64,000 nt of DNA from Flavobacteriales bacterium (GCA_046306055.1 JBKDXR010000016.1:6132-70131); one strand, 5' to 3'; positions 20,449-51,025 are shown, numbered from the stretch's first letter. Notes: generated by a model not told the origin, from the letters alone. A program made the numbers and translations.

Positions 20449-22884
20449 CTACCGCAGCAGCGTCAGCGATCCCGTGAAGCGGTAGCTCCGGCCATCGCCC
20501 CCCTGCGCCTCCAGCACAAAATAGTAAGTGCCGCTGGGTGTCAGCTCGCCGGCATCGGTGCGCCCGTCCCAGGACTGGTCTGGTGCACGCAACTGGGCCA
20601 CCTGTTGCCCCCATCGGTTGAAGATCTGCGCATCGAGGCTGGAAAGGCCCACCGACCTCACGCCCCAGGTGTCGTTCTGGCCATCACCATTGGGGCTGAA
20701 CACGTTGGGCACGAAGATGTCGCTCACCACCACGGGGCTGTTCACCACCACCAGCAGGGTATCGCTATCGCTGCAGCCGTTGGCCGTTGCGGTCATCACC
20801 ACGGTGTAGATGCCGGGGTCGGTATAGACATGATCCGTGGTCGCACCGGTAAAGGCGGTGCCATCGCCCAGGTCCCATTGGAACGCGGCATCCGGAGGCG
20901 TCGACGTGTTGGTGAACAGCACCTCCAGGGGCGGATCGCCCACAAGTGGATCGCCACCGATGTCGGCCACCACGGTGGTCTCCACAACGGTGATCGAGGC
21001 ATTGTCCGTACCACAACCGCTCACTTCCACGGTGTAGGTGCCTCCGGCCGTGACCGTGATGCTTGGCGTGGTGGCCCCGGTGCTCCACAGGTATGCGGTG
21101 CCGCCGCTGGCGGTGAGCACAACGGGGGCGCCGGTGCATAGCGCATCAGGTCCGCTGATCTCCGCCTGGGTGGGCACCGGCTGGATGGTGGTGCTGGCCG
21201 AGGCCGTGCAGCCGTTGGCATCCGTTATGGTGACCTGGTAGCTGCCTTCCGCAAGGCCGGTGGCGGTGAGGGCCGTGCCCCCCGCAGGCGACCACAACTG
21301 CGTGTAGGGCGCGGTACCCCCGGAGGCCTGCACGGTGGCCGTGCCATCGGCGCCGCCGCAGGTGGTGGGCGTGGTGCCAGTGATGGTGGCCGACAGGGGT
21401 GGAGGCTGCGTGATCAGTACCTGGAAGCTGCCCGTGCAACCCTCGGCATCGGTGGCTGTCACCGTGTAATTGCCCGCGACCAGACCGCTCTGCTGCGGTC
21501 CTTGCAGGGCGCCGGGCGACCAGGTGAACGTGTAGGGCCCGGCGCCACCGGTGGCCTGTACCGTGGCGCTGCCGGTGCTGGCTCCATGACAGGCCACGTT
21601 GGTGCTTTGCACCAAGGTCACGATGATGTCCGGGCAGTTCGGGCAAGGCGCCAGGCCGGCGGGAGAGGCGATCTCCAGGGTGCTGCCCGCAGCATCCACC
21701 ACCCGCACCGGCAAAGTCGCGGGCGGGAGGATGCTGGCGCCGGTGGCGAAGGTGGTCCAGGTGGTGACGTTCACCGCGCAGCCCGGAGGGAGGAAGCAGG
21801 CGAAGAGGCAGGCGCTGCAATCCTGCGTGGTGGTCTGCTGCTGCCAGGTGTACGGCGCCAGCCCGTTGCTCACGTTCCAGCTGCCGTCGGCACCGATGCA
21901 CACCTCCATGGGTGCGCAGTTGCTCACGGCGATGACCACCGTGTCGCTGCCGCAGGGCAGGGTGTGCACCACGCTGTGCAGGCCGGGGCCCGCGAGTGCC
22001 GGGTCGAAGGCGCCGGCGTTGGGGGCACTGATGCCGGGGCCGCTCCAGGTGCCGCCGGGCGTGGCGGGCTGCAGCAGCACCGGCGCATCGGTGGTGCACA
22101 GCGGGGCCACGGGGGCGAACTCGGCGTTGCAGCAGGGCTGCGGCACCACGCTCACATCATCCACGAAGTAGTACGCGTAGGGGTTGAGGGCGGCCTCGTT
22201 CGCGCAGTTGTACGTGGTGGTGGCGTCAGCCCGGAAATTGCCGATGGTGATGTACTGCTCGCCGCCGGTGGCGGTGTAGTTCCACTGCAGGCGCTGCCAT
22301 TCTTCGGTATCGGTCACCTCCGGTCCGCTGTATTCCAATTGGGGCGTCACCGGCAGCACCGAAGAACCGCCGATGGTGGCGCAGCTCACGTTGAGCGGGA
22401 CAGAGGAGAAGTGTACCCCGATGTTGGGCGAGGAGAACTTCACATTGTCCGCAAGGCTCACATGGAACTCCACACAGTAGGTCTGACCGGCCACCATGGG
22501 CTGGGTGAGGCTGCCGTGGAGGTATTCGCGCCACCCGCTGCCGAAGAGGGTCTGGCAGCCCAGCAGGGCAAAGCCTTCGTATACGATGATGCCTGCATAC
22601 CCATCACCGGTGCGCGCCGGCTGGCTGCCCAGGATGTTGTTGGGCACCCCGACCCCGAATGCGCCAAAAGGGCTGCACGCATTATAGAGATCGGAGGTGG
22701 AGCAGGTGTCGCCCACCAGGTTCAGGAACGGATCGCGCCAGGGGGCGGCCTTGTCCAGTTCGCTCGGGCCCAGTGGGCAGGAGGTCACGGTCTCGAAGCT
22801 GGGGTTCACCACCAGGTTCTGCGCCCCTGCGAACAGGGGGAGGACCAGCGCGACCAGCGGTAGCAGGCGGAAAGGGGTGTTCAT
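20449..22884 (-). CDS. secreted T9SS substrate with SprB repeats, PKD domain and gliding-motility (type B) C-terminal domain
   Basis: start at MNTPFRLLPLVALVLPLFAGAQ (ATG 22884-22882); PKD motif FQWDLGDGTAF...HVYTDPGIYTVVMTATANGCSD; C-terminal IFVPNVFSPNGDGQNDTW...IFNRWGQQV. Confidence 0.85.
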   Translation of the reverse strand: MNTPFRLLPLVALVLPLFAGAQNLVVNPSFETVTSCPLGPSELDKAAPWRDPFLNLVGDTCSTSDLYNACSPFGAFGVGVPNNILGSQPARTGDGYAGIIVYEGFALLGCQTLFGSGWREYLHGSLTQPMVAGQTYCVEFHVSLADNVKFSSPNIGVHFSSVPLNVSCATIGGSSVLPVTPQLEYSGPEVTDTEEWQRLQWNYTATGGEQYITIGNFRADATTTYNCANEAALNPYAYYFVDDVSVVPQPCCNAEFAPVAPLCTTDAPVLLQPATPGGTWSGPGISAPNAGAFDPALAGPGLHSVVHTLPCGSDTVVIAVSNCAPMEVCIGADGSWNVSNGLAPYTWQQQTTTQDCSACLFACFLPPGCAVNVTTWTTFATGASILPPATLPVRVVDAAGSTLEIASPAGLAPCPNCPDIIVTLVQSTNVACHGASTGSATVQATGGAGPYTFTWSPGALQGPQQSGLVAGNYTVTATDAEGCTGSFQVLITQPPPLSATITGTTPTTCGGADGTATVQASGGTAPYTQLWSPAGGTALTATGLAEGSYQVTITDANGCTASASTTIQPVPTQAEISGPDALCTGAPVVLTASGGTAYLWSTGATTPSITVTAGGTYTVEVSGCGTDNASITVVETTVVADIGGDPLVGDPPLEVLFTNTSTPPDAAFQWDLGDGTAFTGATTDHVYTDPGIYTVVMTATANGCSDSDTLLVVVNSPVVVSDIFVPNVFSPNGDGQNDTWGVRSVGLSSLDAQIFNRWGQQVAQLRAPDQSWDGRTDAGELTPSGTYYFVLEAQGGDGRSYRFTGSLTLLR

Positions 22885-23759: not shown

Positions 23760-25706
23760 ATGAGCCAGCCCACGCCCTCCTACCCGCTCCTGGAGCGCAT
23801 CACGCTTCCGGCCGACCTGCGTGCCCTGCCTGAGGAGCAACTGCAGCAGGTCTGCACCGAGCTGCGCGACTTCATCATCGACGTGGTGAGCGTGAAGGGT
23901 GGCCACTTCGGCGCCAGCCTCGGCGTGGTGGAACTGACCGTGGCCCTGCACTACGTGTTCAACACCCCCTACGACCAGCTGGTGTGGGATGTGGGTCACC
24001 AGGCCTACGGGCACAAGATCCTCACCGGCCGCCGCGAGGTGTTCCATACCAACCGCATCTACAAGGGCCTCAGCGGCTTCCCCAAGCGCAGCGAGAGCAC
24101 CTACGACACCTTCGGCGTGGGGCATAGCAGCACCAGCATCGGTGGCGCGCTGGGCATGGCCGTGGCCAGCAGGCTGAAAGGTGAGCAGGACCGCCAGTGC
24201 GTGGCCATCATCGGCGATGGTGCCATGACCGCCGGCCAGGCCTTCGAAGCGCTGAACCATGCGGGCGGCGCCGGCACGGACATGCTGGTGGTGCTCAACG
24301 ACAACTGCATGAGCATCGACCCGAACGTGGGCGCGCTCAAGGAATATCTGACCGACATCGCCACCAGCCACACCTACAACAAGGTGAAGGACGAGGTGTG
24401 GAACCTGCTGGGCAAGGTGAGCAAGTTCGGCCCCAACGCGCAGGCCATCGTGCAGAAGGTGGAGCATGCCGTGAAGGGCGCACTGCTCAAGCAGAGCAAC
24501 CTCTTCGAAAGCCTCAACTTCCGCTACTTCGGCCCGGTGGACGGACACGATGTGGACCACCTGGTGAAGGTGCTGAAGGACCTGCGCGACATCCCCGGTC
24601 CGAAGATCCTGCACACGATCACCAAGAAGGGTAAGGGCTACGGACCTGCTGAAGCAGGCAGCCCCACGGTGTGGCACGCTCCGGGCCTCTTCAACAAGGA
24701 GACCGGCGAGATCATCAAGGTGGTGCCCAAGAGCCCGCAGCCACCGAAGTACCAGGACGTATTCGGCCACAGCATCGTGGAGCTGGCCGAGAAGAACCCG
24801 AAGATCGTAGGGGTGACCCCCGCCATGCCTTCGGGCTGCTCGCTCAACATCATGATGAAGGCCATGCCCGATCGCGCTTTTGACGTGGGCATCGCCGAGC
24901 AGCATGCCGTTACGTTCAGCGCCGGGATGGCCACGCAGGGCCTGGTGCCCTTCTGCAACATTTATAGCTCGTTCATGCAGCGGGCCTACGACCAGGTGGT
25001 GCACGATGTGGCGCTCCAGAACCTCAATGTGGTATTCTGCTTGGACCGCGGCGGTCTGGCCGGTGCCGACGGCCCCACACACCACGGCAACTTCGACTTC
25101 GCCTACTTCCGCTGCATCCCCAACATGGTGGTGAGCGCGCCGATGAACGAAGAGGAATTGCGCGACCTGATGTACACCGCCCAGCTGCCGGACCAAGGCC
25201 CCTTCAGCATCCGCTACCCGCGCGGCGAGGGCGTGATGACCGAGTGGAAGACGCCCTTCAAGGCGATCAAGGTGGGCACGGGCCGCAAGCTGCGCTCCGG
25301 CACCGACATCGCAGTGCTCAGCATCGGTCACATCGGCAACCTGGCCGCCAAGGGCATCGACGCACTGGAGGCAGAAGGCTACAGCGTGGCGCACTACGAC
25401 ATGCGATTCGTGAAGCCCATCGACGAGCTGCTGCTGCACGAAGTGTTCAGCAAGTTCAAGCACGTGGTCACCGTGGAGGACCACGGCCTGCAGGGTGGCA
25501 TGGGCAGCGCAGTGCTGGAGTTCATGGGCGACCACGGATACGCCGCCCACGTGAAGCGCCTGGCGATCCCCGACAAGTTCATCGAACACGGCACACAGGC
25601 GGAACTCTACCGCGAATGCGGCATCGATGCCATCGCGGTGGTGGAGGCGGTGAAGGAACTTCTTGGTGAGAAGGGTGCGAAGAAGGAGGTGAGGGTGAGC
25701 GCGTGA
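23760..25706 (+). CDS. dxs: 1-deoxy-D-xylulose-5-phosphate synthase
   Basis: TPP-binding GDGAxT motif (IIGDGAMTAGQAFEALNHAG) and full-length Dxs architecture; start aligned on MSQPTPSYPLLERI (alternative upstream starts at 23727/23739); last 16 codons lie beyond the 119-bp repeat. Confidence 0.95.
   Translation: MSQPTPSYPLLERITLPADLRALPEEQLQQVCTELRDFIIDVVSVKGGHFGASLGVVELTVALHYVFNTPYDQLVWDVGHQAYGHKILTGRREVFHTNRIYKGLSGFPKRSESTYDTFGVGHSSTSIGGALGMAVASRLKGEQDRQCVAIIGDGAMTAGQAFEALNHAGGAGTDMLVVLNDNCMSIDPNVGALKEYLTDIATSHTYNKVKDEVWNLLGKVSKFGPNAQAIVQKVEHAVKGALLKQSNLFESLNFRYFGPVDGHDVDHLVKVLKDLRDIPGPKILHTITKKGKGYGPAEAGSPTVWHAPGLFNKETGEIIKVVPKSPQPPKYQDVFGHSIVELAEKNPKIVGVTPAMPSGCSLNIMMKAMPDRAFDVGIAEQHAVTFSAGMATQGLVPFCNIYSSFMQRAYDQVVHDVALQNLNVVFCLDRGGLAGADGPTHHGNFDFAYFRCIPNMVVSAPMNEEELRDLMYTAQLPDQGPFSIRYPRGEGVMTEWKTPFKAIKVGTGRKLRSGTDIAVLSIGHIGNLAAKGIDALEAEGYSVAHYDMRFVKPIDELLLHEVFSKFKHVVTVEDHGLQGGMGSAVLEFMGDHGYAAHVKRLAIPDKFIEHGTQAELYRECGIDAIAVVEAVKELLGEKGAKKEVRVSA
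25539..25657. repeat. 119-bp direct repeat, copy 1 (inside dxs 3' end)
   Basis: identical base-for-base to 33002-33120. Confidence 0.95.
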
Positions 25707-25727
25707 GTGGTGCGCTTTCCCCGTTGG

Positions 25728-26684
25728 TCATTCCTTTTTCACGTCCAACAGTTGAGATAGCTTTGCGTACTTAAGGTCTTTTTGGGCGGCCTTCGTGGAA
25801 CCGTACCCCTCTGGACTAACCGCCCACCGATAGAGAGCTTCTCTGTATTCGAATTCCATCTTGGCAAGGGTTGCCCCACGCCTGAAATTGTAGGCTGAAG
25901 CGCTCGGTGCTGACCCTGAGGTTCTGTTGAATCTTTCGAAGCCGCGCTTCGCATAGCCAAATGGATCCTTGTCCTCGTTGATCAAAGCCTGCTGCAGGAG
26001 GACCGCGATCTTCTCGAGATCTCGATAGTTCCCTGCCAATGGCAAGCTGTCGAGCCATGTATTGAAAGCTGAGGCATCGACCGGGATGGACTGCTTGAAG
26101 AGCATGTTCTTCCAGACAGTAGCGAAGGCTGCTGAGGGTTTCACCTCTTGCTCTTGCACCGAAGGCAGATACAATCCGAGCTGATTGATGCGGTCGAAGA
26201 GGTCCGGCAGAAGCATCTTCTCCAACTCCTCAACAGTCCTATTGGAAGCGAAGACGGGTTGAAAGCGCGCGAATTCTTCGCTATCCGACCCTACCCGGCG
26301 GAAGCGATACCATCCGTGCGTGCCCTTGTGATTAACTGTTTGCAGGGCCGTCATGAGCTTCTCCTGCACCCGCTTATTGAGGTTGTGGATCTCATCGAAG
26401 AAGAGCATGCCGGATTTGTTTGCTTCATGGAACAAGCCGGACTTATTGGAGACCGCCCCTGTGAACGCACCTTTTACGTGACCGAATAGCTCACTGAGCG
26501 CCATGGTGTCCCCTTCGACACTTGCACAGTTGAAGTATGTGGGTGGTCCTTTTAGCACCTTTTCACCGACCTCGTTGATCATCTTGGACTTCCCGATACC
26601 ACGGGCTCCGAGCACTAGGACTGAGAATCGGCCGGGGTTCTTGAAGAAGCTCTCCAGTTCGGCTTCTATTTTGTTAATGGGCAT
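25728..26684 (-). CDS. sigma54-interaction-domain AAA+ ATPase (bEBP-like, no receiver domain)
   Basis: Walker A GARGIGKS; GAFTGA loop in HVKGAFTGAVSNKSGLFHEANKSGMLFFDEIHNL; LAGNYRDLEKI matching the bEBP WPGNVRELEN box; possible degenerate C-terminal HTH (GSTKAAQKDLKYAKLSQLL); start at MPINKIEAEL (ATG 26684-26682). Confidence 0.8.
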   Translation of the reverse strand: MPINKIEAELESFFKNPGRFSVLVLGARGIGKSKMINEVGEKVLKGPPTYFNCASVEGDTMALSELFGHVKGAFTGAVSNKSGLFHEANKSGMLFFDEIHNLNKRVQEKLMTALQTVNHKGTHGWYRFRRVGSDSEEFARFQPVFASNRTVEELEKMLLPDLFDRINQLGLYLPSVQEQEVKPSAAFATVWKNMLFKQSIPVDASAFNTWLDSLPLAGNYRDLEKIAVLLQQALINEDKDPFGYAKRGFERFNRTSGSAPSASAYNFRRGATLAKMEFEYREALYRWAVSPEGYGSTKAAQKDLKYAKLSQLLDVKKE

Positions 26685-26703
26685 GATGTAAATATATCGT
26701 AGT

Positions 26704-26718
26704 GATGATAATATCATC
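26704..26718. promoter_or_regulatory. 15-bp palindrome gatgat-aat-atcatc in the divergent intergenic region (candidate UAS/operator)
   Basis: near-perfect dyad ~80-90 bp upstream of the sigma54-like element at 26799 and just upstream of the ATPase start. Confidence 0.35.
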
Positions 26719-26798
26719 TCGATAGATTTTCCGCCAAATGGCATAAGCCGCTCAAATCCAACAGACTATCTATGGCTCACGTGTTGGACGAAAGGTCT

Positions 26799-26812
26799 TG
26801 GCACGGCTTTGC
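26799..26812 (+). promoter_or_regulatory. sigma54-like -24/-12 element (TGGCAC-N4-TTGC; spacing one nt shorter than consensus)
   Basis: tggcacggctttgc about 30 nt upstream of the DUF4258 ATG and beside a bEBP-type ATPase gene; GG-N9-GC rather than the canonical GG-N10-GC. Confidence 0.3.
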
Positions 26813-26843
26813 TAATAGGAGGGTGCAACAAGTTCCCCAGCCC

Positions 26844-27137
26844 ATGCAACCCCACATCATCGTCCCCAGCCTGCACGCCGTGCAACGAGCCTACGAGCGT
26901 GGTATCACCACACCCATGATCCAAGACACCCTTCGGTGGGGGAAGAAACTCCACCGCCAAGGGCTGCGCTTCTTCGTCATGCTTCGCTGCTGCATCCCAC
27001 CCGGCTTGGATGAACGCTATGCGAAGCAATTGGTGAATGTGACCGTGGTGCTCGGCGGTGATGAGACCATCGTCACGGTGTACCGCAACCCGAAGGCTAT
27101 AGCCCACATCAAGCGCAAACCCAAGCGACTCCTATGA
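26844..27137 (+). CDS. DUF4258-family small protein (RelE/toxin-like fold)
   Basis: MQPHIIVPSLHAVQRAYERGIT matches the H-A-x-x-R-M-x-E-R-G-I signature of DUF4258; stop overlaps the next ATG (ATGA); an upstream in-frame ATG at 26772 is possible. Confidence 0.6.
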   Translation: MQPHIIVPSLHAVQRAYERGITTPMIQDTLRWGKKLHRQGLRFFVMLRCCIPPGLDERYAKQLVNVTVVLGGDETIVTVYRNPKAIAHIKRKPKRLL

Positions 27138-28414
27138 GGATCCTCAAGATCATCCATGGCTACCCTCCACTGTATAGCGCAGGGTCGGAGGTCTACAGCC
27201 AGAGCACCTGTGACCAGCTCGCGAAACATCACGAGGTGCTGGTGTTCACCCGCGAGGAGAATCCTTTCGCGCCAGACTTTTCGTTGCGGCGCGTAAAGGG
27301 GGAGAGCGGACCCAAGCGCGTCCTGGTGAACATGCCGCGCGGCAAGGATGGGTATCGCCACAAGGAGTTGGACGAGCGCTTCGCCGAGGTGCTCCGTTCG
27401 TTCGGTCCGGATGTGGCGCACATTAGCCATCTCAATCATCTGTCCACCGGCATCGTGGATGTGCTCAAGGAGGCTGGCATTCCCATCGTGTTCACCCTGC
27501 ACGACTTCTGGCTGATGTGCCCGCGCGGGCAGTTCTTGCAGCGCAATTTCGGAGGAGGTGTGGTGCATGCCCTGTGCGATGGCCAGGAGGACCGCAAGTG
27601 CGCCACATCGTGTTACGCATCCCTGATGTCCGGTGAAGAAGGCCAACATGAGCGTGACGAAGACTATTGGACAGCATGGATCCACCAGCGCATGCGCGCG
27701 TCCAAGCGCCTCTCTGAAAGCGTGGACCGGTTCATCGCCCCATCGCGCTACCTTATGGATCGCTTCATCCGCGACTTCGGACTGCCCGCTGAGAAGGTCA
27801 TGCACCTGGACTATGGCTTTCCGGTCCACTACCTGACGCCATCAGTGAAACGCACACCATCCGACAAGTACCGCTTCGGCTACATCGGCACGCACATCCC
27901 GGCAAAAGGGGTCAACCTGCTTCTTGAAGCATTCGATGGGTTGGGCGATGCGGCCGAGTTACACATTTGGGGCGCCAAGGATGAGCAAAGCACCCGAGCG
28001 TTGCGGAGCATGGCGGACGGCAAAGTCGGAATCCACTTCCATGGTCCGTATGTCAATCACAACCTGGCCAACGAGGTTTTCGCAGTAGTGGACTGCATTG
28101 TGGTGCCGTCCATCTGGATGGAGAACTCACCCTTGGTGATCCACGAGGCCCAGGCCTGTCATATCCCCGTGATCACAGCGAACGCCGGGGGTATGGCCGA
28201 GTATGTAGCGCACCAGGTGAACGGTCTGCTTTTCCAGCATCGCTCGGCGGTCGACCTGCGCCATTGGATGCGCTGGGCGGTGGAGCATCCACATACCATG
28301 AAGCAACTCGGCGAGCGCGGCTATCTCCATGTGGCTGACGGTGCCATTCCGGACATCGAAGAGCACTGCAAGGCACTCGAAAACATGTACACCAACCTCA
28401 TTAGCAGACCATGA
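27134..28414 (+). CDS. glycosyltransferase family 4 (GT-B, group 1)
   Basis: 426 aa; C-terminal E-x7-E motif (ENSPLVIHE) and GT4 Rossmann repeats; 4-nt overlaps at both ends. Confidence 0.8.
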   Translation: MRILKIIHGYPPLYSAGSEVYSQSTCDQLAKHHEVLVFTREENPFAPDFSLRRVKGESGPKRVLVNMPRGKDGYRHKELDERFAEVLRSFGPDVAHISHLNHLSTGIVDVLKEAGIPIVFTLHDFWLMCPRGQFLQRNFGGGVVHALCDGQEDRKCATSCYASLMSGEEGQHERDEDYWTAWIHQRMRASKRLSESVDRFIAPSRYLMDRFIRDFGLPAEKVMHLDYGFPVHYLTPSVKRTPSDKYRFGYIGTHIPAKGVNLLLEAFDGLGDAAELHIWGAKDEQSTRALRSMADGKVGIHFHGPYVNHNLANEVFAVVDCIVVPSIWMENSPLVIHEAQACHIPVITANAGGMAEYVAHQVNGLLFQHRSAVDLRHWMRWAVEHPHTMKQLGERGYLHVADGAIPDIEEHCKALENMYTNLISRP

Positions 28415-29433
28415 GCACATTCTGGCGGATCACCCTGGATACTAATCCAGAGGATTGCAACCTGAGCTGCACCATGTGCGAAGAGCACAGTGAGTTCAGC
28501 GATTTCATGCAACGCTTGTACGAGCGCACAGGCGTCAAGCGACGGCGCATGCCTTTCGACATGGTGCAGAAGGTGATGGAGCAGGCCGCTGCAATGGGTG
28601 TGCGTGAGATCATCCCGTCCACCATGGGCGAACCACTTCTCTACCGGCAGATGGATGAGCTGCTGGAGTTGGCCAAGGAGCTTGGCATGAAGGTGAATCT
28701 GACCACCAATGGCACCTTTCCGAAGCGCTCTGTGGAGGATTGGGCGGAGCGCATCGTGCCGGTCACTTCGGATGTGAAGATCTCGTGGAACGGCGCTACC
28801 AAGGAAACGACGGAAGCTGTGATGAAGGGCCTGAAGTTCGAGCAGGCCATCGCCAATGTGGAGCGCTTCATAGCGGTACGTGATGCACACCATGCAGCTA
28901 CAGGGCACTACTGCCGGGTGACCTTCCAGCTTACCTTCATGCAGAACAATATGCACGAGTTGCCGGATATCATCGCGCTCGCTGCAAGGCTTGGTGTGGA
29001 TCGTGTGAAGGGCCATCATCTCTGGGCACATTTCGAGGAGATCCAGCACCTGAACTTCAAGGCATCCGCCCAGACGATCGATCGTTGGAACGACATCGTG
29101 GATCTGGCCGTGGCCGCTGCCGCGAAACACCCGAGGCACGATGGAACACCTGTCCTGCTGGAGAATATCACTCCCCTGTTGCCACAGAATGGCCATGCGG
29201 TTCCCCACACCCACGAGTGCCCTTTCCTGGGCAAAGAGCTTTGGGTTTCTGCTACGGGCGACATCTCTCCCTGCTGCGCGCCGGACGACCTGCGGCGATC
29301 GCTGGGAGACTTCGGCAATGTGAGCGAACGGAGCCTAGCCGAGGTGGTGGCCGATGAAGCATACCAAGACCTGATGCGGGACTACCGCGACCGGCCGCTT
29401 TGTAGCACCTGCAACATGCGCAAGCCATGCTGA
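28411..29433 (+). CDS. radical SAM enzyme with SPASM/twitch-like C-terminal cysteine cluster
   Basis: CNLSCTMC (CxxxCxxC) radical-SAM motif at residues 16-23; C-terminal CPFLGKELWVSATGDISPCC ... CSTCNMRKPC auxiliary Fe-S cysteine pattern. Confidence 0.8.
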   Translation: MSTFWRITLDTNPEDCNLSCTMCEEHSEFSDFMQRLYERTGVKRRRMPFDMVQKVMEQAAAMGVREIIPSTMGEPLLYRQMDELLELAKELGMKVNLTTNGTFPKRSVEDWAERIVPVTSDVKISWNGATKETTEAVMKGLKFEQAIANVERFIAVRDAHHAATGHYCRVTFQLTFMQNNMHELPDIIALAARLGVDRVKGHHLWAHFEEIQHLNFKASAQTIDRWNDIVDLAVAAAAKHPRHDGTPVLLENITPLLPQNGHAVPHTHECPFLGKELWVSATGDISPCCAPDDLRRSLGDFGNVSERSLAEVVADEAYQDLMRDYRDRPLCSTCNMRKPC

Positions 29434-29951
29434 AAGTGCTGCTATTCGGCAATCTGGGGTCCGGCAAAAGCCATCTGGCCGAGCGGTTCATACAGCGCCA
29501 CCCGATCTACGAACACGTTGCCATTGATGCCTTCCGAAGGACCCACGGCGATGGAACCATGGCCGGGGAGCGCACCGCCAAGGAATGCTTCATCCTCAGC
29601 GTCCTTCCCGGTATGCCACAACTCATCGAAGCCACTGGACTTGGCGAGACCGGAGTGCTCTTGGCGGAACGACTGGATGCCATGGAAGAGCACATGCTCA
29701 TCGTGCTCCTGACCACTCCGCTTGAACGCTGTTTGACCCGACTCGAGCAGAGGATCTGGGACGTGCCTTATCCCGCACCTCCAGAGGAAGCCTTGGAGCT
29801 TGCCCGGAGGACCGATGCGTTCATAAAGGCGGGAGAAGTGGAAATGATCTGGGACAGGGCGGGGAGGACGCAACTGATCAAAGGGGATTGCTCCGATGAG
29901 CGATCCATGAACGAACTGCTGGAACGAATGGAACACCACCTGCTGAAATGA
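29427..29951 (+). CDS. small P-loop NTPase/kinase
   Basis: Walker A GNLGSGKSHL at the N-terminus; 174 aa, size and layout of shikimate/gluconate/nucleoside-kinase-like P-loop kinases. Confidence 0.65.
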   Translation: MLKVLLFGNLGSGKSHLAERFIQRHPIYEHVAIDAFRRTHGDGTMAGERTAKECFILSVLPGMPQLIEATGLGETGVLLAERLDAMEEHMLIVLLTTPLERCLTRLEQRIWDVPYPAPPEEALELARRTDAFIKAGEVEMIWDRAGRTQLIKGDCSDERSMNELLERMEHHLLK

Positions 29952-31360
29952 AACACCACAAGATCATCACCCAAGTCGAACAACGTATCGCCGCATTGGA
30001 CGGTATCGAGGCCGCCGTGCTCTATGGTTCGGTAGCAAGGGGCGAAGCGACCCCGAACTCGGACATCGACCTTGGCATCATCGTCAATGATCGGTTCGAT
30101 CGGGATGCGTTGATCGAGGCCTTTAAGGGCATGGAGCTTCAACCGGACCATGTGATGCCGGTATCGATGCGCAACAAGGTCGTTGCCTATTTCCAGGATA
30201 TGCGCATCAAATTGGAGGTGGCACTTCATCATGACCTGGCATCCTTTGGCCGCGACCTCTCAGGCTCGGTCATTCCGGAGCACCTGCTGCCCAATGCTGT
30301 GCTGCTGGACCGAACAGGCACTCTGGTGCAGCGCATCCTCGACATGAACGGCTCGGGATACAAGCCCTACTCCGTAGAGGAACTCGTGCAGAAGTTCATC
30401 TACGAGTTCGACAATCTGTCCACCTTCCACCGCCGGAGCGACGGTTACCGGGCACTCTACTTTCATCAGATCGCGCTGCATTGCCTGGTGCAACTGATGA
30501 ACATGCGCAGTAACGGCGACCGGTTCCAGTTCCTGCCCCGCAACCTGTTGGTGAACATCAAGGACAAGGAGCAGCTGCGCCGCATTTACGAGCTGAACGG
30601 ATCCATGTATCTGCCGGACATGAACCGCAAGAAGCGCGCGCTGCTGGACATGCTCTATGCCACGCTCGCAGAGTTGGCTTATCCTGAGTTGGATGAAGTA
30701 CGCTTGGTGTTGGAACGCATCTACGACAGGGACCGGCATTGGAACCTGCGTAGTGTAGGTACGCATGGCCCCATGATACGTTGGCCGAATCTGTTGCGAA
30801 GCAGCCTGCCCGCGATCATGCAGCCGGACGTATTGAGTGATCTGCTGGAGCGGAATGCAGTACACACCATCATCGACCTGCGCGCACCTCGTGAACTGGA
30901 AGAGCATCCATACGCAGAGGATGCAATATCCAATGTGCGGTATGTGCATGCGCCGTTCGACCCGTGGGCCCAACCCGATTGGTTCAAGGAGCCGGAATTC
31001 CAGCAGGGCGAGCACCAGGAGATCGCGTACCGCTTCTTTGCATTGGGCTGTCGACAGAGCATCAAGGACATCGTGGACGCGCTCATCGATGTTCCCGAGG
31101 ACATGGGCGCCATCATCCATTGCCATGCGGGGAAGGACCGGACCGGCATTGTCTGCACCTTGCTTCACCTGTTGGTCGGCGCTGAAATGGAAGATGTGAT
31201 GACCGACTACCTCGCCAGCGAATCGGACACCTATGCGCACAACCTGCAAGTGGTGCTCGATGTCATTGAACGCCAAGGGGGCATCCGGGCATACCTCGGC
31301 AACTGTGGTCTGAGCGATGCCCAGATCGATCGACTTCAACAACGCCTGAGCCATGGCTGA
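29948..31360 (+). CDS. fusion protein: minimal nucleotidyltransferase (pol-beta superfamily) N-terminal domain + protein-tyrosine/dual-specificity phosphatase-like C-terminal domain
   Basis: GSVARGEATPNSDIDLGII (GS...DxD NTase motif) at residues 27-45; C-terminal HCHAGKDRTG (CX5R phosphatase P-loop). Confidence 0.75.
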   Translation: MKHHKIITQVEQRIAALDGIEAAVLYGSVARGEATPNSDIDLGIIVNDRFDRDALIEAFKGMELQPDHVMPVSMRNKVVAYFQDMRIKLEVALHHDLASFGRDLSGSVIPEHLLPNAVLLDRTGTLVQRILDMNGSGYKPYSVEELVQKFIYEFDNLSTFHRRSDGYRALYFHQIALHCLVQLMNMRSNGDRFQFLPRNLLVNIKDKEQLRRIYELNGSMYLPDMNRKKRALLDMLYATLAELAYPELDEVRLVLERIYDRDRHWNLRSVGTHGPMIRWPNLLRSSLPAIMQPDVLSDLLERNAVHTIIDLRAPRELEEHPYAEDAISNVRYVHAPFDPWAQPDWFKEPEFQQGEHQEIAYRFFALGCRQSIKDIVDALIDVPEDMGAIIHCHAGKDRTGIVCTLLHLLVGAEMEDVMTDYLASESDTYAHNLQVVLDVIERQGGIRAYLGNCGLSDAQIDRLQQRLSHG

Positions 31361-32306
31361 GCGACCTGAGCAACTCTTCACCGGATACTGGCGCTACCTG
31401 GCCGTCCGGGCCGCCTGCAAACTGGACCTGTTCGAGCATATCGCTGCAGGGGTGCGCACTGTGCCGGGCCTTTGTGCTGCCATTTCCTGCGATCAGCGCT
31501 CCCTGGATAGCCTTGTTGGTGCGCTGGTCCATGAAGAATACCTGTTGCATAGCGAGGAGGGCCTGCGGCTATCTCTGGAAGCCCAGCGGCTTTGTGCTGG
31601 CCATCCTACTAGCGTGAAACATGCCTGCCTGCTGTGGGGTGCAGAGCACATGGATGCCTGGCAACACCTTGACGAAAGCATCCGATCGGGACAGCCGGTT
31701 TTCACGAAGCTGTTCGGCGACACCTTCTTCCGCTACTTGGACGGGCATCCAGAACGGGCCGTGGAGTATCACAGGGCCATGTTCGAATACGCGCGGCAGG
31801 ACTATGCGGGGATCGGTGAGGTCTTGGACCTATCAGCACACCGGTCGGTCATGGATGTTGGAGGTGGCAATGGGGCGCTGGTCGGGTGCTTGAGGGCAGG
31901 TCATCCGGGGGTGTCCTTCCGAATCTTCGACATCCAGGACCACCGCACAGATCATTCGCGGGATATTCTGTTCATCCAAGGCGACTTCTTCAACGCGGTT
32001 CCTGAAGGTTCGGATGCCTTGCTACTCAGCAGGGTGATCCATGATTGGGATGATGCGCAGGCGTTGCAAATACTCCGGAATTGTCACTCCGCACTACCTC
32101 GGGAGGGGGCCCTTTTCCTCATCGAGAACGACCTGTCAATGCTCGCCGACGGTGGACATCTGCTGTCGCTGAACATGCTGGCCACCTGCGGTAGTCGGGA
32201 GCGCAGCGTGCAGGAATATCAACAACTGCTGGAAGGCTCCGGATTCCGGGTCCAAGGTCTTGTCCACCATGGAAATCAGGCGATCATCAAAACTGTACGC
32301 GCATGA
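31353..32306 (+). CDS. class I SAM-dependent O-methyltransferase (small-molecule OMT family 2)
   Basis: VMDVGGGNGALV SAM-binding motif I; N-terminal dimerisation-like region; ~320 aa; no DNA-MTase DPPY/NPPY motif. Confidence 0.8.
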   Translation: MAERPEQLFTGYWRYLAVRAACKLDLFEHIAAGVRTVPGLCAAISCDQRSLDSLVGALVHEEYLLHSEEGLRLSLEAQRLCAGHPTSVKHACLLWGAEHMDAWQHLDESIRSGQPVFTKLFGDTFFRYLDGHPERAVEYHRAMFEYARQDYAGIGEVLDLSAHRSVMDVGGGNGALVGCLRAGHPGVSFRIFDIQDHRTDHSRDILFIQGDFFNAVPEGSDALLLSRVIHDWDDAQALQILRNCHSALPREGALFLIENDLSMLADGGHLLSLNMLATCGSRERSVQEYQQLLEGSGFRVQGLVHHGNQAIIKTVRA

Positions 32307-32998
32307 ACTGGCATGATATCAAACCCTCCTTGGACGGTGCGCACTTCCTTCTCGGGGGACAACCGATCTGGATCGACCGCTTCATGGCCGTTATGTCCTT
32401 CCATGCTCCTGGCGTGGCACCCGTACAGGATGTTTCCGGTTGGTACCACATTGATGCAGAAGGTTGTCCCTTGTACAAAGCGCGCTACCACAAGGCCTAT
32501 GGCTTCTATTGTGACCGTGCAGCGGTCAAGGACAAGACAGGTTGGTTCCACATCGACCTTAACGGCGATGCGTGCTATCCTGAGCGCTACGCGTGGTGCG
32601 GCAATTTCCAAGAGAATTGCTGCGCTGTACGGTCATCGGATGGATACCATCATATCGATCCGTTAGGCCGGGCGCTGTATGCGGAACGCTGGCAATACGC
32701 TGGGGATGCGCGGGATGGGGTCATTTGTGTGCAAAGCGCCGGAGAGGCCTTCCACATCCGCAAGGATGGGAGCAAGCTGTACCCGGCGACCCATCGTTTC
32801 GTGCATGTGTTCCACAAGGGCTTCGCCGTTGCGTTAGACACGTTGGGTTGGTGCCATATCGACCGATCGGGACAACCCATCCATGCGCATCGCTTCCAGT
32901 ACTTGGAGCCGTTCTACAATGGTGTGGCGGTAGCGATCGATGGGGAGGGTCGGAACGTGATGGTCAATGAGGTGGGTGAGGTGACCTTGTTGGGATAG
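32303..32998 (+). CDS. WG-repeat protein (about five ~45-aa repeats with conserved GW-[HY]-I-D)
   Basis: repeats GWYHIDAEG, GWFHIDLNG, GYHHIDPLG, AFHIRKDG, GWCHIDRSG; stop codon lies 3 nt before repeat copy 2. Confidence 0.65.
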   Translation: MNWHDIKPSLDGAHFLLGGQPIWIDRFMAVMSFHAPGVAPVQDVSGWYHIDAEGCPLYKARYHKAYGFYCDRAAVKDKTGWFHIDLNGDACYPERYAWCGNFQENCCAVRSSDGYHHIDPLGRALYAERWQYAGDARDGVICVQSAGEAFHIRKDGSKLYPATHRFVHVFHKGFAVALDTLGWCHIDRSGQPIHAHRFQYLEPFYNGVAVAIDGEGRNVMVNEVGEVTLLG

Positions 32999-33001
32999 GG
33001 C

Positions 33002-33120
33002 TACGCCGCCCACGTGAAGCGCCTGGCGATCCCCGACAAGTTCATCGAACACGGCACACAGGCGGAACTCTACCGCGAATGCGGCATCGATGCCATCGCG
33101 GTGGTGGAGGCGGTGAAGGA
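33002..33120. repeat. 119-bp direct repeat, copy 2
   Basis: identical to 25539-25657. Confidence 0.95.
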
Positions 33121-33177
33121 GATGGTGGGGGCCTCTGCTGTTGGCTTCGGCCGGGCTGCGGGTAAGAGGGGATGATC
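33002..33177 (+). pseudogene. displaced dxs 3'-end fragment (last ~58 codons with an alternative tail ...VKEMVGASAVGFGRAAGKRG*)
   Basis: reads in the dxs frame through the repeat and continues 19 codons to TGA; no start codon or upstream gene body. Confidence 0.8.
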
Positions 33178-33290
33178 CGTCACTGCCCTTCTCATTAGTG
33201 CTTCGTTAACGATGGACGCCTGCTTCAAGGAGCAATAAGCGACTATTTCTGGGCTTGTATTCACCGTATATGCGTATATATGGTGACACG

Positions 33291-34413
33291 GATTCAACTC
33301 ATAAACGCAATCGGATAGACTGACAGGAGAGCTGATGATTTCTTCAGGAGGAGGAGAGGCTTTTACCCCTCGATCCCCGCTGAATGGAGGATGCGGCCTA
33401 CCCTTGTTCTGGGGTCCAATCCGTTGCAAGAATGAGCCACATCACCGATGAGCAAAGGTGCATCATACAACGCATGAAGAAGGCCGGTCATCAGCAGAAG
33501 CGGATCGCCGAGGCCATTGGCAAGTCCGAGTCGGCGGTGAGCCGCGAGATCAGGCGCAACTGCGACCAGCGCAGCGGCGCGTAGAACGCTGACCTGGCTG
33601 CCCGCAAGAGCGCGCAGCGCAAGAAGGACAAGCCCAAGGCGGTGCGCTTCACCGCTGCCATTCGCGCTAAGGTGGAACGGCAACTGGCCCAGAAGCTCAG
33701 CCCGGAGCAGATCGTGGGCGTTGCCGTGCGCGCGGGCCGCGACATGGTCTCCCATGAGCGCATCTATCAGCATATCTGGCAGAACAAGAAGTGCGGCGGC
33801 CACCTGCACGAGCGCCTGAGCACGCGCGGTAAGCCCTACCGCAAGCGAGGCGCGGCCAAGGACAGCAGAGGCATCATCAAAGACCGGGTGGGCATCAATC
33901 AGCGGCCCACAGTGGTTGAGAGGCGCAAGCGGTTCGGCGACCTGGAGATGGACACGATCATAGGTCGCAAGCACAAGGGCGCCATCGTCACGATCAACGA
34001 CCGCGCCAGCGGGATTCTATTGATGCGCAAGGTGCCCCGCAAGGAATCTGGTCTGGTGGCCCAGGCCGCTATCGAAGCGCTGCGCCCTTGGAAACCGCTG
34101 CTGCACAGGGCCACCAGCGACAACGGGAAGAAGTTCGCCGATCATCAGCTCATCGCCCGCAAGCTCCAGTTGGACTTCTTCTTCGCCAAGCCCTACCATA
34201 GCTGTGAGCGCGGCTCCAACGAGAACCTCAACGGCCTCATCCGCCAGTACATCCCCAAGCAGACCGATTTCGACACCCTCACCGATGAGTTCATCCAGTA
34301 CGTCCAAGACCAGATCAACAGCCGACCAAGGAAACACTTCATCTTCGACACCCCGAGCAACGAGTTCAACCGACTAACCCGATGACCCAGCGATTGCGTT
34401 TATGAGTTGAATC
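33291..34413 (+). mobile_element. IS30-family insertion sequence (1123 bp)
   Basis: perfect 23-bp terminal inverted repeats gattcaactcataaacgcaatcg (33291-33313) and cgattgcgtttatgagttgaatc (34391-34413); internal DDE transposase; possible 2-bp CG target duplication. Confidence 0.85.
33432..34385 (+). pseudogene. IS30-family transposase interrupted by an in-frame TAG (33582-33584)
   Basis: HTH part (MSHITDEQRCIIQRMKKAGHQQKRIAEAIGKS...) and DDE catalytic part (MRFTAAIRAK...) are in the same frame, separated only by one TAG codon. Confidence 0.75.
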
Positions 34414-34739
34414 CGCCGGTATCAGCCTGAAGTGACCAGTCGGAAATGGGTAGTGATGCTCCTAAGGCCATTGCGAAAATGGTTGCGGTGATGAGGCAGG
34501 TTCCCCGATCGGGTCAACGCTGGACGCAGGAAAGTGGACCACTGGATCCCATTTGGTTCGTTGCCCTCTGCTGGCTGACCCCGCCATCCCTTACGCCATG
34601 ACTGCAAAACGCCGACACCTCTTTGTATTTCCGCGGAAGTGAGACGATGTGCTGTTGGGACGAGGTACCACCACCGAGTATCCTAGCTTTGCACCGAATA
34701 ATGGATGCGGAGCACTCCGCCTAAGCGGGCACTCGGTTC

Positions 34740-35321
34740 ATGGCTGAACTCATCGATACACTGCGCAACTTCGCACCATGGTCGGAGGCCGAGGCCGGAG
34801 CACTTCAAGGTCATTTCAAGGCAGTTACCGTGAAGAAGGGACAGACCCTCCTGCAGAAGGGCGACTTGTGCGACGGGATCTTCTTTATCCGAAACGGCGG
34901 GCTTCGCACATGGTTCTATGACAACAAGGGGCGCGAGGTAACGCGTTACATCGGACTACCGGGGTATTTCTGCACAACGTTGGACAGCTTCATAGAAGGT
35001 TCCGCTTGCAAAGAGAACGTCGAAGCCTTCGCCGCCAGCGAGCTCCTTTTGTTGCACCGGGACATGCACTTGGAACTTCGGCGGGGCAACCCGAAGTGGG
35101 AACGGGCTTACGTGCAGTTGATGGAATTCGGTTATGTGCTCACCACCTGGAGGCTCATCAGCACCCTGAGCCTGAGTGCCGAGGAGCGTTTCGAGGATCT
35201 GCGCGCCAGAGCCCCGCATCTCCTGCGCGAAGTGCCGGACCGCATCATTGCCAGCTATCTGGGCATGGCACCAGAGTACCTAAGCCGGTTGAAGGCCAAG
35301 GCGCTCCGCGTGAAGTCTTGA
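34740..35321 (+). CDS. Crp/Fnr-family transcriptional regulator
   Basis: cNMP-binding-like N-terminal domain and C-terminal HTH (RIIASYLGMAPEYLSRLK). Confidence 0.8.
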   Translation: MAELIDTLRNFAPWSEAEAGALQGHFKAVTVKKGQTLLQKGDLCDGIFFIRNGGLRTWFYDNKGREVTRYIGLPGYFCTTLDSFIEGSACKENVEAFAASELLLLHRDMHLELRRGNPKWERAYVQLMEFGYVLTTWRLISTLSLSAEERFEDLRARAPHLLREVPDRIIASYLGMAPEYLSRLKAKALRVKS

Positions 35322-35366
35322 CATTTTGCAAGGGCTCGGACAAGGGCAAGCCGCTAGCCTTGCATC

Positions 35367-36089
35367 ATGGCTGCGCTGCTCACCACCATCGCCAGGACCT
35401 TTCTAGCGAAGGGGCGTTTGGTCTCCGTTCAGCCGTTGAACGCGGTAGCAACGCATATCGTGCTTTGCCCCGAGCATAGGGGCCTCTGCAACGTTCGGGC
35501 TGGTTCGCAACTCGGGATCTGGACGCACGAATACGGCACAGGCGTGGGTGATGCTCGGCGCACCTATAGCGTATGGCAGTGCGACAGGCACAGCGGTGAT
35601 CTCCATTTAGCCCTTTGCCACCTCTCCGAAGGTCCTGGTCAACATTGGGCGCGAAATGTCGTTGCTGGAGATGAGGTGCTCTTCTCCAAACCGGAAGTGA
35701 AGTTCGGCTTGGCGGATGCAGCGCTGCCGGCGGTCTATATCGGTGATACGTGCGCACAGTATCATCTCTATGCGCTCCGTCGTGGGTTGCTTGCCAGCGC
35801 ACCCGGTTCCGGCATTGTTCACGCCGATGCGCCTGACCACGTTTTCTCGGACCATGAGGGGTCAACGCCTTTCGCCACGCTGGTGCAACCCGAATGGGTG
35901 GTTGACGCGTTGATCGACCGGATCGAGCACCTCGGCACGACGCGGCACGCCAACACTGTATTGCACATCACCGGTGAAGCAGGTGTCGTCAAGGCCCTGC
36001 ACGATCACCTCTATCGCAACCTCGGCATACCCCAGGCACGGATAACAGCCAAGGCGTTCTGGAAACCAGGCAGGACGCGTATGGAATAA
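35367..36089 (+). CDS. siderophore-interacting protein (ferric-siderophore reductase, FAD-binding 9/SIP family)
   Basis: 240 aa; R-x-Y-S/T motif (RRTYSVW) and SIP C-terminal region; stop overlaps the TonB receptor start (TAATG). Confidence 0.7.
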   Translation: MAALLTTIARTFLAKGRLVSVQPLNAVATHIVLCPEHRGLCNVRAGSQLGIWTHEYGTGVGDARRTYSVWQCDRHSGDLHLALCHLSEGPGQHWARNVVAGDEVLFSKPEVKFGLADAALPAVYIGDTCAQYHLYALRRGLLASAPGSGIVHADAPDHVFSDHEGSTPFATLVQPEWVVDALIDRIEHLGTTRHANTVLHITGEAGVVKALHDHLYRNLGIPQARITAKAFWKPGRTRME

Positions 36090-38464: not shown

Positions 38465-38467
38465 GCG

Positions 38468-51024: not shown

Positions 51025-51025
51025 T

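Follow-up and report, generated by a model that had tools for sequence, protein, structure and literature searches.

An eight-gene accessory cassette behind a duplicated dxs 3′ end in a recombination hotspot of uncultured Flavobacteriales

Genomic islands can be inserted by tyrosine recombinases at the 3′ ends of genes for tRNAs or proteins. The locus described here lies in a window of 64,000 nucleotides from a member of the Flavobacteriales (the window being the whole stretch of DNA that was analysed). It resembles such islands by its duplicated gene end, its intact target gene and the existence of relatives with an empty site, and differs from them in that the defining integrase is missing in every version examined.

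Cis-mobilizable elements (CIMEs) are integrative elements that no longer have integration and transfer genes of their own; they have been described for streptococcal ICE/IME families, together with a tandem accretion at target-gene 3′ ends (PMC5704250). The cassette shows the repeats and the gene content of the CIME definition given there: the direct repeats include the end of a conserved gene, genes for integration or transfer are lacking, and a second island lies beside the displaced gene end. However, neither a remnant of a parent ICE/IME nor a helper was found among the fetched loci. The repeats are, moreover, long (122–181 nt), they show concerted evolution with the host gene, and no fixed crossover core is visible in them. 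Unlike in the streptococcal cases, the target here is dxs, in an uncultured host from the Flavobacteriales; the literature searched contained no report of this gene being used for integration.

Hotspots flanked by core genes are known from cDHS1 of Pseudomonas aeruginosa (PMC10250203) and from E. coli (PMC10121019), and exchange by homologous recombination in the conserved flanks has been proposed for Pseudomonas (PMC10250203). As in these hotspots, variable content without obvious mobile-element genes lies between core genes (here dxs and accC), and the occupants include some toxin-antitoxin- or defence-like genes (zeta toxin, AbiEii-like nucleotidyltransferase, CHAT protease, RtcR-like regulator). 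In contrast to them, the end of the left core gene is duplicated beyond the cassette, which equips the cassette with a right-hand homology arm and with an inherent deletion route.

The duplicated dxs end and the cassette

The dxs gene (1-deoxy-D-xylulose-5-phosphate synthase; 23760–25706, plus strand, alternative TTG start at 23727) is intact and encodes 648 amino acids with all three DXP-synthase domains of Pfam (DXP_synthase_N, Transket_pyr and Transketolase_C). Orthologs were present in 80 genomes at 73–95% amino-acid identity. As an earlier sequence-only reading of the window had claimed, the 119 nt at 25539–25657 recur base for base at 33002–33120; no match to this repeat arose in 100 dinucleotide shuffles. 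The repeat extends to 122 nt with one mismatch, which defines copy 1 (c1, 25536–25657, plus strand) within the working dxs and copy 2 (c2, 32999–33120, plus strand), a displaced gene fragment. Direct repeats overlapping the dxs end, as in the attL/attR of an integrative element, measure 122 nt here and 170 nt in the related lineage L113.

Copy 1 continues into tail 1 (T1, 25658–25706, plus strand), which reads ELLGEKGAKKEVRVSA up to the stop codon and is the ordinary dxs C-terminus in the clade; this tail type also occurs in L091, L113, L003 and L005. Copy 2 does read in the dxs frame, into ...VKEMVGASAVGFGRAAGKRG and a stop, but the tail that follows is not the separate one it was taken for: tail 2 (T2, 33121–33177, plus strand) is of the T1 type, with 32 nt inserted and the frame shifted, and it breaks off past its stop codon. 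Alignment pairs it with the working dxs tail in L096, and the 32-nt variant is carried on c2 in the window and on c1 in L096. The proposed division into one original and one displaced tail is not supported: T1 is the ordinary tail of the clade, and the working dxs of L096 ends in the T2 form. Of a third dxs tail (T3), the end (..KGTKSAIA and a stop) remains at 52930–52955 (plus strand). In L086, c2 reads uninterrupted via EMLAENKGRKSAIA and its stop into sequence that matches window positions 52930–53081 with 93% identity.

The segment 25707–32998 is an eight-gene accessory operon cassette; the eight open reading frames read earlier between the repeat copies, which are 7.3 kb apart, were all recovered. 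Packing is tight, with 21 nt from the dxs stop to the neighbouring gene. This gene (25728–26744, minus strand) encodes a 338-aa RtcR/PspF-like sigma-54 AAA+ regulator (318 aa with a start at 26684 according to gene callers) that lacks the N-terminal sensor (CARF-like) domain. It matches Sigma54_activat of Pfam (1.5e-26) and RtcR_PspF1 of PADLOC (2e-53), the latter aligned to profile positions 182–455 only, and L097 holds a full-length homolog of 615 aa. The remaining genes are on the plus strand. A small conserved ORF of 97 aa with weak DUF4258 similarity (26844–27137), kept at the same position in L096, L097 and L099, is followed by a GT4-family glycosyltransferase (27134–28414; Pfam Glycos_transf_1 and Glyco_transf_4) and a radical SAM/SPASM enzyme (28411–29433; Pfam Radical_SAM and SPASM), for which no NCBIfam family at cut-off and no PDB relative by sequence was found. 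Next come a small P-loop kinase-like protein (AAA_33; 29427–29951) and a Pol-beta type nucleotidyltransferase fused to a Y_phosphatase3 tyrosine-phosphatase-family domain (29948–31360); the fusion has 603 homologs at E≤1e-10, and the few with an organism name are Bacteroidota. A small-molecule O-methyltransferase (31353–32306; Pfam Methyltransf_2), whose best PDB relatives are CalO6, MmcR and DnrK, precedes the last gene, which encodes a WG-repeat protein (32303–32998; Pfam WG_beta_rep). Its stop codon (TAG, 32996–32998) lies 3 nt before the perfect repeat, as had been noted, and abuts the 122-nt copy. Apart from the regulator, PADLOC returned only weak pVip-like matches, to the radical SAM enzyme (3.5e-12). 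The cargo probably encodes a pathway under RtcR-type regulation, for the synthesis or modification of a small molecule or nucleotide that is glycosylated and methylated; with low confidence, it may be stress- or phage-related.

The cassette has a lower GC content (57.1%) than dxs (63.5%), as first perceived, although the flanks are at ~62–64% rather than the 66–68% estimated by eye. There is no recovery at copy 2, beyond which the GC content stays at 55–60% up to ~39.95 kb. Furthermore, in all hosts examined, and also in L097 where it lies at an unrelated locus, the cassette is 4–7 points under its host, and its composition is therefore no sign of recent arrival.

Island B, the IS30 element and the search for mobility genes

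A second island, island B (33178–52929, 19.8 kb), follows copy 2 and ends at the third dxs-tail remnant. Up to ~39.95 kb (58% GC) it carries the IS30 element, a Crp-like regulator, a siderophore-interacting protein, a TonB-dependent receptor, a DUF4249 protein and a T9SS-tail protein; its 64% GC part thereafter holds an AraC regulator, a PDZ-hydrolase, a sigma factor, a DUF2807 protein, an S41 peptidase, an ABC transporter with M1 peptidase and a beta-propeller protein. It is missing from strain L086 and is inserted into the displaced tail in the window lineage only, and the variable region that relatives lack reaches 52.9 kb. Beyond it, a Fib_succ_major-domain gene and a 329-aa gene (52960–54790, minus strand) form the conserved right flank of the hotspot. 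The ortholog of the latter (53801–54790) lies directly after dxs in L004, ~0.6 kb downstream in L002 and L010, and directly behind the second dxs-end copy in L003; both genes come after the cassette in L092.

The inactivated IS30-family element (33289–34415, plus strand) is situated 168 nt beyond copy 2, where it had been reported. It has perfect 25-bp inverted repeats (33289–33313 and 34391–34415) and an in-frame TAG in its transposase gene. A composite transposon was rejected, since this one copy lies outside the repeat and no IS copy is present at both ends of the segment. The element is missing from L086, L096, L092 and L113, all with the cassette and c2, and therefore plays no part. Its proximity to c2, and the several short contigs that end within the repeat (e.g. 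L088, L001 and L110), could speak for an IS30-mediated mobilisation of the segment or for an assembly artefact arising from a collapsed or duplicated repeat. We consider both extremely improbable: the island is found on at least 17 contigs of ENA, JGI, NCBI and Logan assemblies at 99.4–100% identity, L081, L084 and L085 span both repeat copies, and independent assemblies from different samples and pipelines cross the two junctions identically, so that the artefact is rejected.

The island had been read as devoid of a recombinase, and no such gene was found in it or in the rest of the 64 kb. Searches with Pfam, PADLOC and NCBIfam detected none among all ORFs of the window island or of the island in L003, precomputed Pfam matches contained none for L092, L096 and L113, and a motif and tblastn scan of 1.76 Mb of loci gave only an Xer-like gene, in the distant L024. 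Neither an integrase nor a relaxase nor a pseudogene remnant of one was seen in six island versions, the seven assembled contigs with the regulator gene showed no attP-like junction, and viral contigs gave no match. A recombinase may act in trans, from outside the 64 kb searched.

Occupied and empty sites among relatives

The interval from dxs to accC (62954–63961) measures 2 to 38 kb and holds differing genes in L091, L004, L002, L003, L092, L096, L086 and the window. Core genes flank strain-variable content with no mobile-element backbone, which points to a hotspot of recombination here, in an uncultured clade of the Flavobacteriales. Neighbour domains in other lineages comprise GmrSD, WYL, PLD, DUF559, zeta toxin, an AbiEii-like protein and CHAT.

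Relatives with a single dxs end and no insert, as an insertion would lead one to expect, were found in L091 and also in L004, L002 and L010. The closest, L091, which at 94% nucleotide identity in dxs is not the same strain, has a single dxs that ends in a T1 tail, and a zeta-toxin gene comes next. From this empty site it follows that the segment is an insertion behind dxs, by which the dxs 3′ end was duplicated; L091 may never have had the cassette, instead of losing it.

At least five related lineages (L096, L113, L092/L093, L106 and L086) have the same cassette next to dxs at 76–99% nucleotide identity, with the stop of the WG gene running into GGCTACGCC, and the TAG-GGCTACGCC junction is common to the window, L086, L106, L092 and L113. 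In L096 (76.5%), c1 and c2 are 92% identical over 110 nt, and c2 is followed by T1 and the zeta-toxin gene. L113 (75.9%) has no regulator gene and carries a repeat of 170 nt (91.8%) that reaches the stop codon; according to this best-preserved lineage, the unit that was duplicated at first comprised the final 170 nt of dxs together with its stop codon. The cassette of L092/L093 is at 78.6%, with c2 shrunk to GGCT...GGGTGAGCGCCTAG, that of L106, itself a mosaic, at 92.6%, and that of L086 at 99.4%. The right flank of c2 varies by lineage (T1 and zeta toxin, T3, or T2 and island B). The gene order of the cassette is retained in six other lineages inspected. Linkage to dxs is restricted to this clade, and L097, L099, L101 and L105 have the same order at other loci.

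These comparisons do not bear out a recent classic attL/attR event limited to 25.5–33.1 kb: the cassette and its right junction are shared by at least five lineages, with up to 24% difference between their cassettes, and the cassette is therefore not a recent arrival. What stands of the proposed mobile insertion at the dxs 3′ end is the insertion itself, the duplicated end and the lack of an integrase. It is not freshly integrated, because this cassette without an integrase is common to several related species, where it occupies a recombination hotspot.

A different species, L003, has an unrelated CHAT-gene island that also duplicates the dxs end. The left boundaries differ (25536 for the cassette, a position equivalent to 25501 for the CHAT island), and the dxs-end homology stops at the stop codon or a few bases from it. 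Two unrelated cargos that each duplicate the dxs 3′ end, and a homology that ends near the stop, are both typical of site-specific elements with a gene-end mimic, and they count against the explanation by homologous recombination that we prefer below.

The cassette could be CIME-like, derived from or a satellite of an integrative element targeting the dxs 3′ end, with c1 and c2 as attL and attR, recently integrated by a helper integrase encoded elsewhere and able to excise. We regard this as unlikely. It would account for a conserved gene that is reconstituted and has direct repeats at its 3′ end, for the empty site of L091, for the homology stopping at the stop codon and for the tandem with island B, which resembles the accretion described for CIMEs (PMC5704250). 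It would also fit the working dxs tail of L003, which is of a foreign type and, as counted from the alignment, 88% identical to the L091 tail, as against 71% in the adjacent coding part. However, the tightly packed versions contain no mobility gene or remnant, the contigs with the regulator gene lack an attP-like junction, viral contigs are without a match, and the arrangement is common to divergent lineages. Finally, the copies cluster by genome and no element-type arm common to different hosts was seen, where a fixed crossover core predicts otherwise.

Homogenisation of the two copies and proposed origin of the cassette

In the window, both c1 and c2 have A at 25586, 25595 and 25604 (c1 numbering), where G is found in c2 of L086 and of L106, in both L096 copies, in L091 and in L001. 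These shared bases, absent from other lineages, suggest that the perfect 119-nt identity is the product of a recent, window-specific homogenisation; copy 2 is still unconverted in L086 and L106. Likewise, GACCGC is present in both L113 copies, and in L096 the two copies agree at 94 of 102 positions. Third codon positions account for 37 of 50 c1-c2 differences, against a share of ~44% expected under in-situ decay, itself a rough estimate.

Two cassettes are mosaic. L106 is 10% divergent from the window left of ~31.85 kb and 99.75% identical from there to 33038, and in L086 a window-type cassette (99.4%) is joined to a c2 and flank that are 5–7% divergent. Both are clear exchanges between lineages.

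They bear on the possibility of an old immobile locus, in which one illegitimate or Campbell-type event in a common ancestor was followed by vertical descent, absences are deletions and the repeat is now without a role. The junction common to at least five lineages agrees with it, as do the divergence of the cassette, close to that of the flanking non-essential genes (78.6% identity between L092 and the window, against 79.6–82.7% in the flank), and signs of decay such as the truncated or missing regulator, the deletion of c2 in L092 and the interrupted WG gene of GCA_046338155.1. Nevertheless, strict vertical descent seems improbable in view of the two mosaics, the third-position bias and the within-genome homogenisation. 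It is also at odds with dxs itself, in which L091 (94%), with its empty site, stands nearer to the window than L096 (~90%), whose site is occupied.

We favour, with modest confidence, an integrase-free hotspot cassette that is gained, lost and exchanged by homologous recombination. The insertion would be of the Campbell type, a single crossover of circular DNA carrying a copy of the dxs 3′ end, which would keep the essential dxs whole. Later gain, loss and exchange among lineages would proceed by RecA-type recombination, with dxs and the downstream pseudo-copy as homology arms. If c1 and c2 recombined with each other, the cassette would be removed precisely, and a locus of the L096 or L113 type would be converted into the L091 arrangement. 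The pseudo-copy would be kept gene-like by gene conversion between the two copies and by exchange with incoming dxs alleles, and these processes could recently have made the 119 nt identical in the window genome. Either a single old insertion followed by recombination or repeated insertion into different hosts may underlie the present distribution.

A more tentative extension of this recombination scheme, which we hold to be doubtful, is that the downstream pseudo-copy acts as a portable homology arm, so that integrase-free cassettes with a copy of their target gene end would cross species by RecA alone, the cargo being an undescribed RtcR-regulated defence or small-molecule system of Bacteroidota. 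Insertion would be of the Campbell type or by double crossover, for the window operon as for the L003 CHAT island; recombination would re-tune the copy to each host, and the tail past the homology, such as the foreign T1-type tail of L003, would be a fossil of an earlier host.

The locus indicates that an accessory operon can adjoin an essential gene without harm. A long perfect direct repeat can stem from gene conversion and not from recent integration, which calls for caution where islands are called by repeats and GC content alone. The Bacteroidota also possess a widespread, uncharacterised cassette that combines an RtcR-like regulator, a GT4 glycosyltransferase, a radical SAM/SPASM enzyme, a kinase, a nucleotidyltransferase-phosphatase fusion, an O-methyltransferase and a WG-repeat protein. 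If the homology-arm reading were true, it would provide a simple integrase-free route for the spread of islands.

Repeat and cassette in the window

The 119-nt perfect repeat described in the sequence-only reading was confirmed, since positions 25539-25657 are identical to positions 33002-33120; if one mismatch is allowed, it extends to 122 nt (25536-25657 and 32999-33120). A match of this kind was obtained in none of 100 dinucleotide-preserving shuffles. Copy 1 forms the 3′ end of dxs, which is intact and encodes the Pfam domains DXP_synthase_N, Transket_pyr and Transketolase_C; an exact look-up of its protein found no identical sequence on record. Reading of copy 2 showed that it indeed follows the dxs frame into a different tail. 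Copy 1 continues into tail T1 (25658-25706), which encodes ELLGEKGAKKEVRVSA up to the stop codon, and copy 2 continues into tail T2 (33121-33177). No third full copy of the dxs 3′ end was detected in the window by blastn with a word size of 7. The structure is real and not an artefact of assembly: the island occurs at 99.4-100% identity in at least 17 contigs drawn from ENA, JGI, NCBI and Logan assemblies, and both copies are spanned by three of these contigs.

Between the copies we found the expected eight genes as co-packed ORFs (25728-32998). Gene 1, on the minus strand, encodes an RtcR/PspF-type sigma-54 AAA+ regulator without the N-terminal sensor domain, and gene 2 is a 97-aa ORF. Genes 3 to 8 encode, in this order, a GT4 glycosyltransferase, a radical SAM/SPASM enzyme, a small P-loop kinase, a nucleotidyltransferase fused to a Y_phosphatase3 domain, a natural-product-type O-methyltransferase, and a WG-repeat protein (32303-32998) whose stop codon abuts copy 2, in line with the adjacency first noticed. 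A sequence search of the PDB gave no match to the radical SAM enzyme. For the nucleotidyltransferase-phosphatase fusion, 603 homologs were found at E<=1e-10, and the few with an organism name belong to Bacteroidota. No description of the cassette was found in the literature; the cargo operon is uncharacterised and widespread. In the assembly GCA_046338155.1 (L084/L108), gene calling splits the WG-repeat gene into ORFs of 113 and 89 aa, although the contig aligns gaplessly to the window; this suggests that the strain carries a nonsense substitution.

The predicted contrast in base composition held only in part: the cassette is lower in GC (57.1%), but its flanks are at about 62-64% rather than 66-68%. 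Low GC continues beyond copy 2 up to about 39.95 kb. A GC peak of about 0.70 lies inside the SprB/CHU_C gene upstream of dxs (21000-22250). No recombinase gene is present in the island, as had been proposed, or anywhere else in the 64 kb, and no tRNA gene was found in the 64-kb window. A search for integrases among the loci by motif and tblastn returned a single match, a Xer-like gene in L024, which was set aside as irrelevant to the cassette: this locus is distant and AT-rich and does not carry the repeat. The IS30-family element (33289-34415; perfect 25-bp inverted repeats) begins 168 nt past copy 2 and is, as first described, inactivated. An in-frame TAG at 33582-33584 breaks the transposase frame; the identical defect occurs in every contig of the strain.

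Empty sites and related loci

The genomes nearest to the window are MAGs (metagenome-assembled genomes) of uncultured, Flavobacteriales/Cryomorphaceae-like bacteria. An empty site was recovered in L091, the one contig returned by a metagenome scan with a 37-mer common to all copies. L091 has a single dxs end without insert and is 94% identical to the window at the nucleotide level across the dxs half that it covers. Its dxs tail reads REMLGEKGVKKGVRVSA up to the stop codon, and a zeta-toxin gene follows directly. This indicates that the site can be empty and that the first tail of the window is the ordinary tail of its clade. Of the two tails, one of which had been supposed original and the other displaced, T1 is thus native and T2 lies on the displaced copy; import of T1 by the island was rejected for the window. 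In other relatives, an ortholog of the gene at 53801-54790 is found directly after dxs (L004) or about 0.6 kb after it (L002 and L010), and orthologs of 60111-61586 and of accC (62954-63961) come next in all three. Therefore, nearly all of the window from 25.7 to 52.9 kb is missing there. Among 80 species-representative loci, a second dxs-end copy within 10 kb was found in L003 alone. Toxin-antitoxin-like genes are native to the neighbourhood of dxs in several lineages. They comprise a zeta-toxin gene, as in L091 (1303-1899, reverse strand) and L096 (12063-12593), and in L092 (4687-6078) an AbiEii/NTP_transf_5-like nucleotidyltransferase gene.

The same cassette lies behind dxs in L086 (99.4% nucleotide identity), L106 (92.6%), L092/L093 (78.6%), L096 (76.5%, with dxs at about 90%) and L113 (75.9%). 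The two copies of L096 are 92% identical across 110 nt and share in addition a 49-nt tail repeat; copy 2 is followed by a T1-type tail and then by the zeta-toxin gene. The repeat of L113 covers 170 nt at 91.8% identity, from GGCTACGCC through the stop codon. In L092/L093 copy 2 is nearly all deleted, and 'GGCT...GGGTGAGCGCCTAG' remains ahead of the zeta-toxin gene. The junction between the stop codon of the WG-repeat gene and GGCTACGCC is the same in the window, L086, L106, L092 and L113. A canonical G-quadruplex motif occurs in the purine-rich T1 tail of L113 (257-288 and 6357-6388) and L096 (4473-4503 and 11996-12027). It was rejected as a general cause of the hotspot, being absent from the window, L091 and L003.

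More distant cassettes (52-68% amino acid identity) keep the gene order at other loci, so the linkage to dxs is clade-specific and a functional link was rejected. One of them (L097:4667-13111) adjoins GmrSD, WYL and AAA-M41 domain genes and a tRNA-Asn gene, that of L105 adjoins PLD and DUF559 genes, and those of L099 and L101 have other contexts. At L097:13212-13377, a 30-nt stretch over the 5′ end of the tRNA-Asn gene has an exact repeat 86 nt away. Inspection of six other lineages showed the gene order to be maintained. L097 has a full-length regulator (615 aa, with a weak RtcR-domain match), whereas the regulator is truncated in the window and L096 and absent from L113; the L101 cassette also does without the kinase and the methyltransferase. 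The GC content of the cassette is 4-7 points below that of the host in every case examined, which makes low GC a feature of the cassette itself rather than evidence that it arrived recently.

Evolution of the copies and their tails

Both copies of the window have A at the sites numbered 25586, 25595 and 25604 in copy 1, and C at 25607. The first three are G in copy 2 of L086 and L106, in both L096 copies, in L091 and in the related locus L001, while 25607 is G or T. Copy 2 of L086 is identical to that of L106 and differs from that of the window at six sites, despite the 99.4% identity of the L086 cassette. The copy pairs within L113 and within L096 likewise share lineage-specific states. These data indicate that the copies evolve in concert within each genome. 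The 119-nt identity represents a recent tract of conversion or recombination and not the scar of a recent insertion. Furthermore, 37 of the 50 differences between copies fall at third codon positions, compared with roughly 44% expected for decay in place by our own rough estimate. This bias fits sequence supplied by working dxs alleles rather than a fragment decaying in place. T2 (33121-33177) is of T1 type but carries a 32-nt insertion, which shifts the frame and gives a different C-terminus. The homologous tail with the 32-nt insertion is the working dxs C-terminus in L096 (4441-4491), where plain T1 lies on copy 2. The tails, too, have been exchanged.

Exchange between lineages is direct. 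Compared with window 28882-33121, the L106 cassette is a mosaic, with about 10% divergence up to about 31.85 kb (31845) and 99.75% identity from there to 33038, a stretch with only three differing positions. L086 shifts from window-like to L106-like somewhere within 32425-33039. A breakpoint inside the first 40 nt of copy 2 was rejected; because the window, L086 and L106 are near-identical at 31.85-33.04 kb, the breakpoint is placed only to 32425-33039. L106 and L086 stem from the same run of ENA accessions.

Other islands at the site and the route of spread

Copy 2 of L086 runs on through a complete tail, EMLAENKGRKSAIA up to the stop codon, into sequence 93% identical to window 52930-53081. 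This comparison, and no other, identified the 26 nt at window 52930-52955 as what remains of a third dxs tail; the stretch 33178-52929 is a second island, which entered the displaced tail in this lineage alone. This island B (19.8 kb, missing from strain L086) starts directly after the stop codon of T2, and no recombinase other than the dead IS30 was found among its ORFs. Its GC content is 58% up to about 39.95 kb and 64% beyond, which suggests two parts. At 40000-41000, where the high-GC part begins, local GC peaks of 0.69-0.74 lie over an AraC-family gene.

L003, whose dxs protein is 87% identical, carries behind dxs an unrelated 7.7-kb island (L003:11742-19814) encoding a CHAT protease, a TPR protein, a sigma factor and a LamG/T9SS protein. 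It is flanked by two dxs-end copies (181 nt, 89% identity), and no integrase was found in it. The left edge of its repeat lies 35 nt upstream of that of the window, so the L003 island records a separate event. The displaced tail and the gene after it correspond to what is found at the empty site of L004, a relative of L003. The working tail is of T1 type and 88% identical to that of L091 by our own count from the alignment, compared with just 71% for the adjacent coding sequence; this tail was therefore imported with the island.

This recurrence of the dxs-end footprint with unrelated cargo, together with the arrest of homology at the stop codon, keeps in play a less likely, CIME-like origin, in which an integrase acting in trans may have made the footprint and may still use it. 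CIMEs (cis-mobilizable elements) are defined by retained att-like repeats and lost integration and transfer genes (PMC5704250), and the window structure corresponds to this definition by description, ICE/IME derivation aside. However, no element-type arm is common to different hosts. No attP-like junction was found among the contigs bearing the regulator, and those extending past the repeat all have the dxs body there. Viral contigs scanned with the repeat and with the nucleotidyltransferase-phosphatase fusion gave no match, and no report of dxs as an attachment site was found in the literature. The structure does not qualify as an integrative element because a recombinase is absent.

In topology, the locus corresponds to a Campbell-type insertion with dxs left whole. 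Recombination takes place between the copies as well as with alleles of other lineages, and no version has a recombinase. We infer that gain, loss and exchange now proceed by homologous recombination in which dxs and its pseudo-copy provide the arms. A crossover between copies 1 and 2 at an L096- or L113-type locus would yield exactly the L091 arrangement, and the deletion of copy 2 in L092 would lock the cassette in place. The original duplication may have arisen through RecA, from a circle that had captured a dxs end, or, alternatively, through a site-specific enzyme that was later lost or that acts in trans. Homologous recombination through conserved flanks has been proposed for hotspots of Pseudomonas aeruginosa and E. 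coli (PMC10250203; PMC10121019). The dxs region behaves like these core-gene-flanked hotspots but differs from them in that the end of the flanking gene is duplicated within it.

The observation holds, and the segment is inserted DNA. A reading of it as a fresh attL/attR footprint did not hold, the copies being homogenised in each genome: the perfect repeat reflects this homogenisation, and the segment is therefore not a freshly integrated element. It is an old integrase-free cassette, common to related species, in a recombination hotspot. A possible spread through homology arms, and a cargo operon of this kind, could add to the value of the finding.
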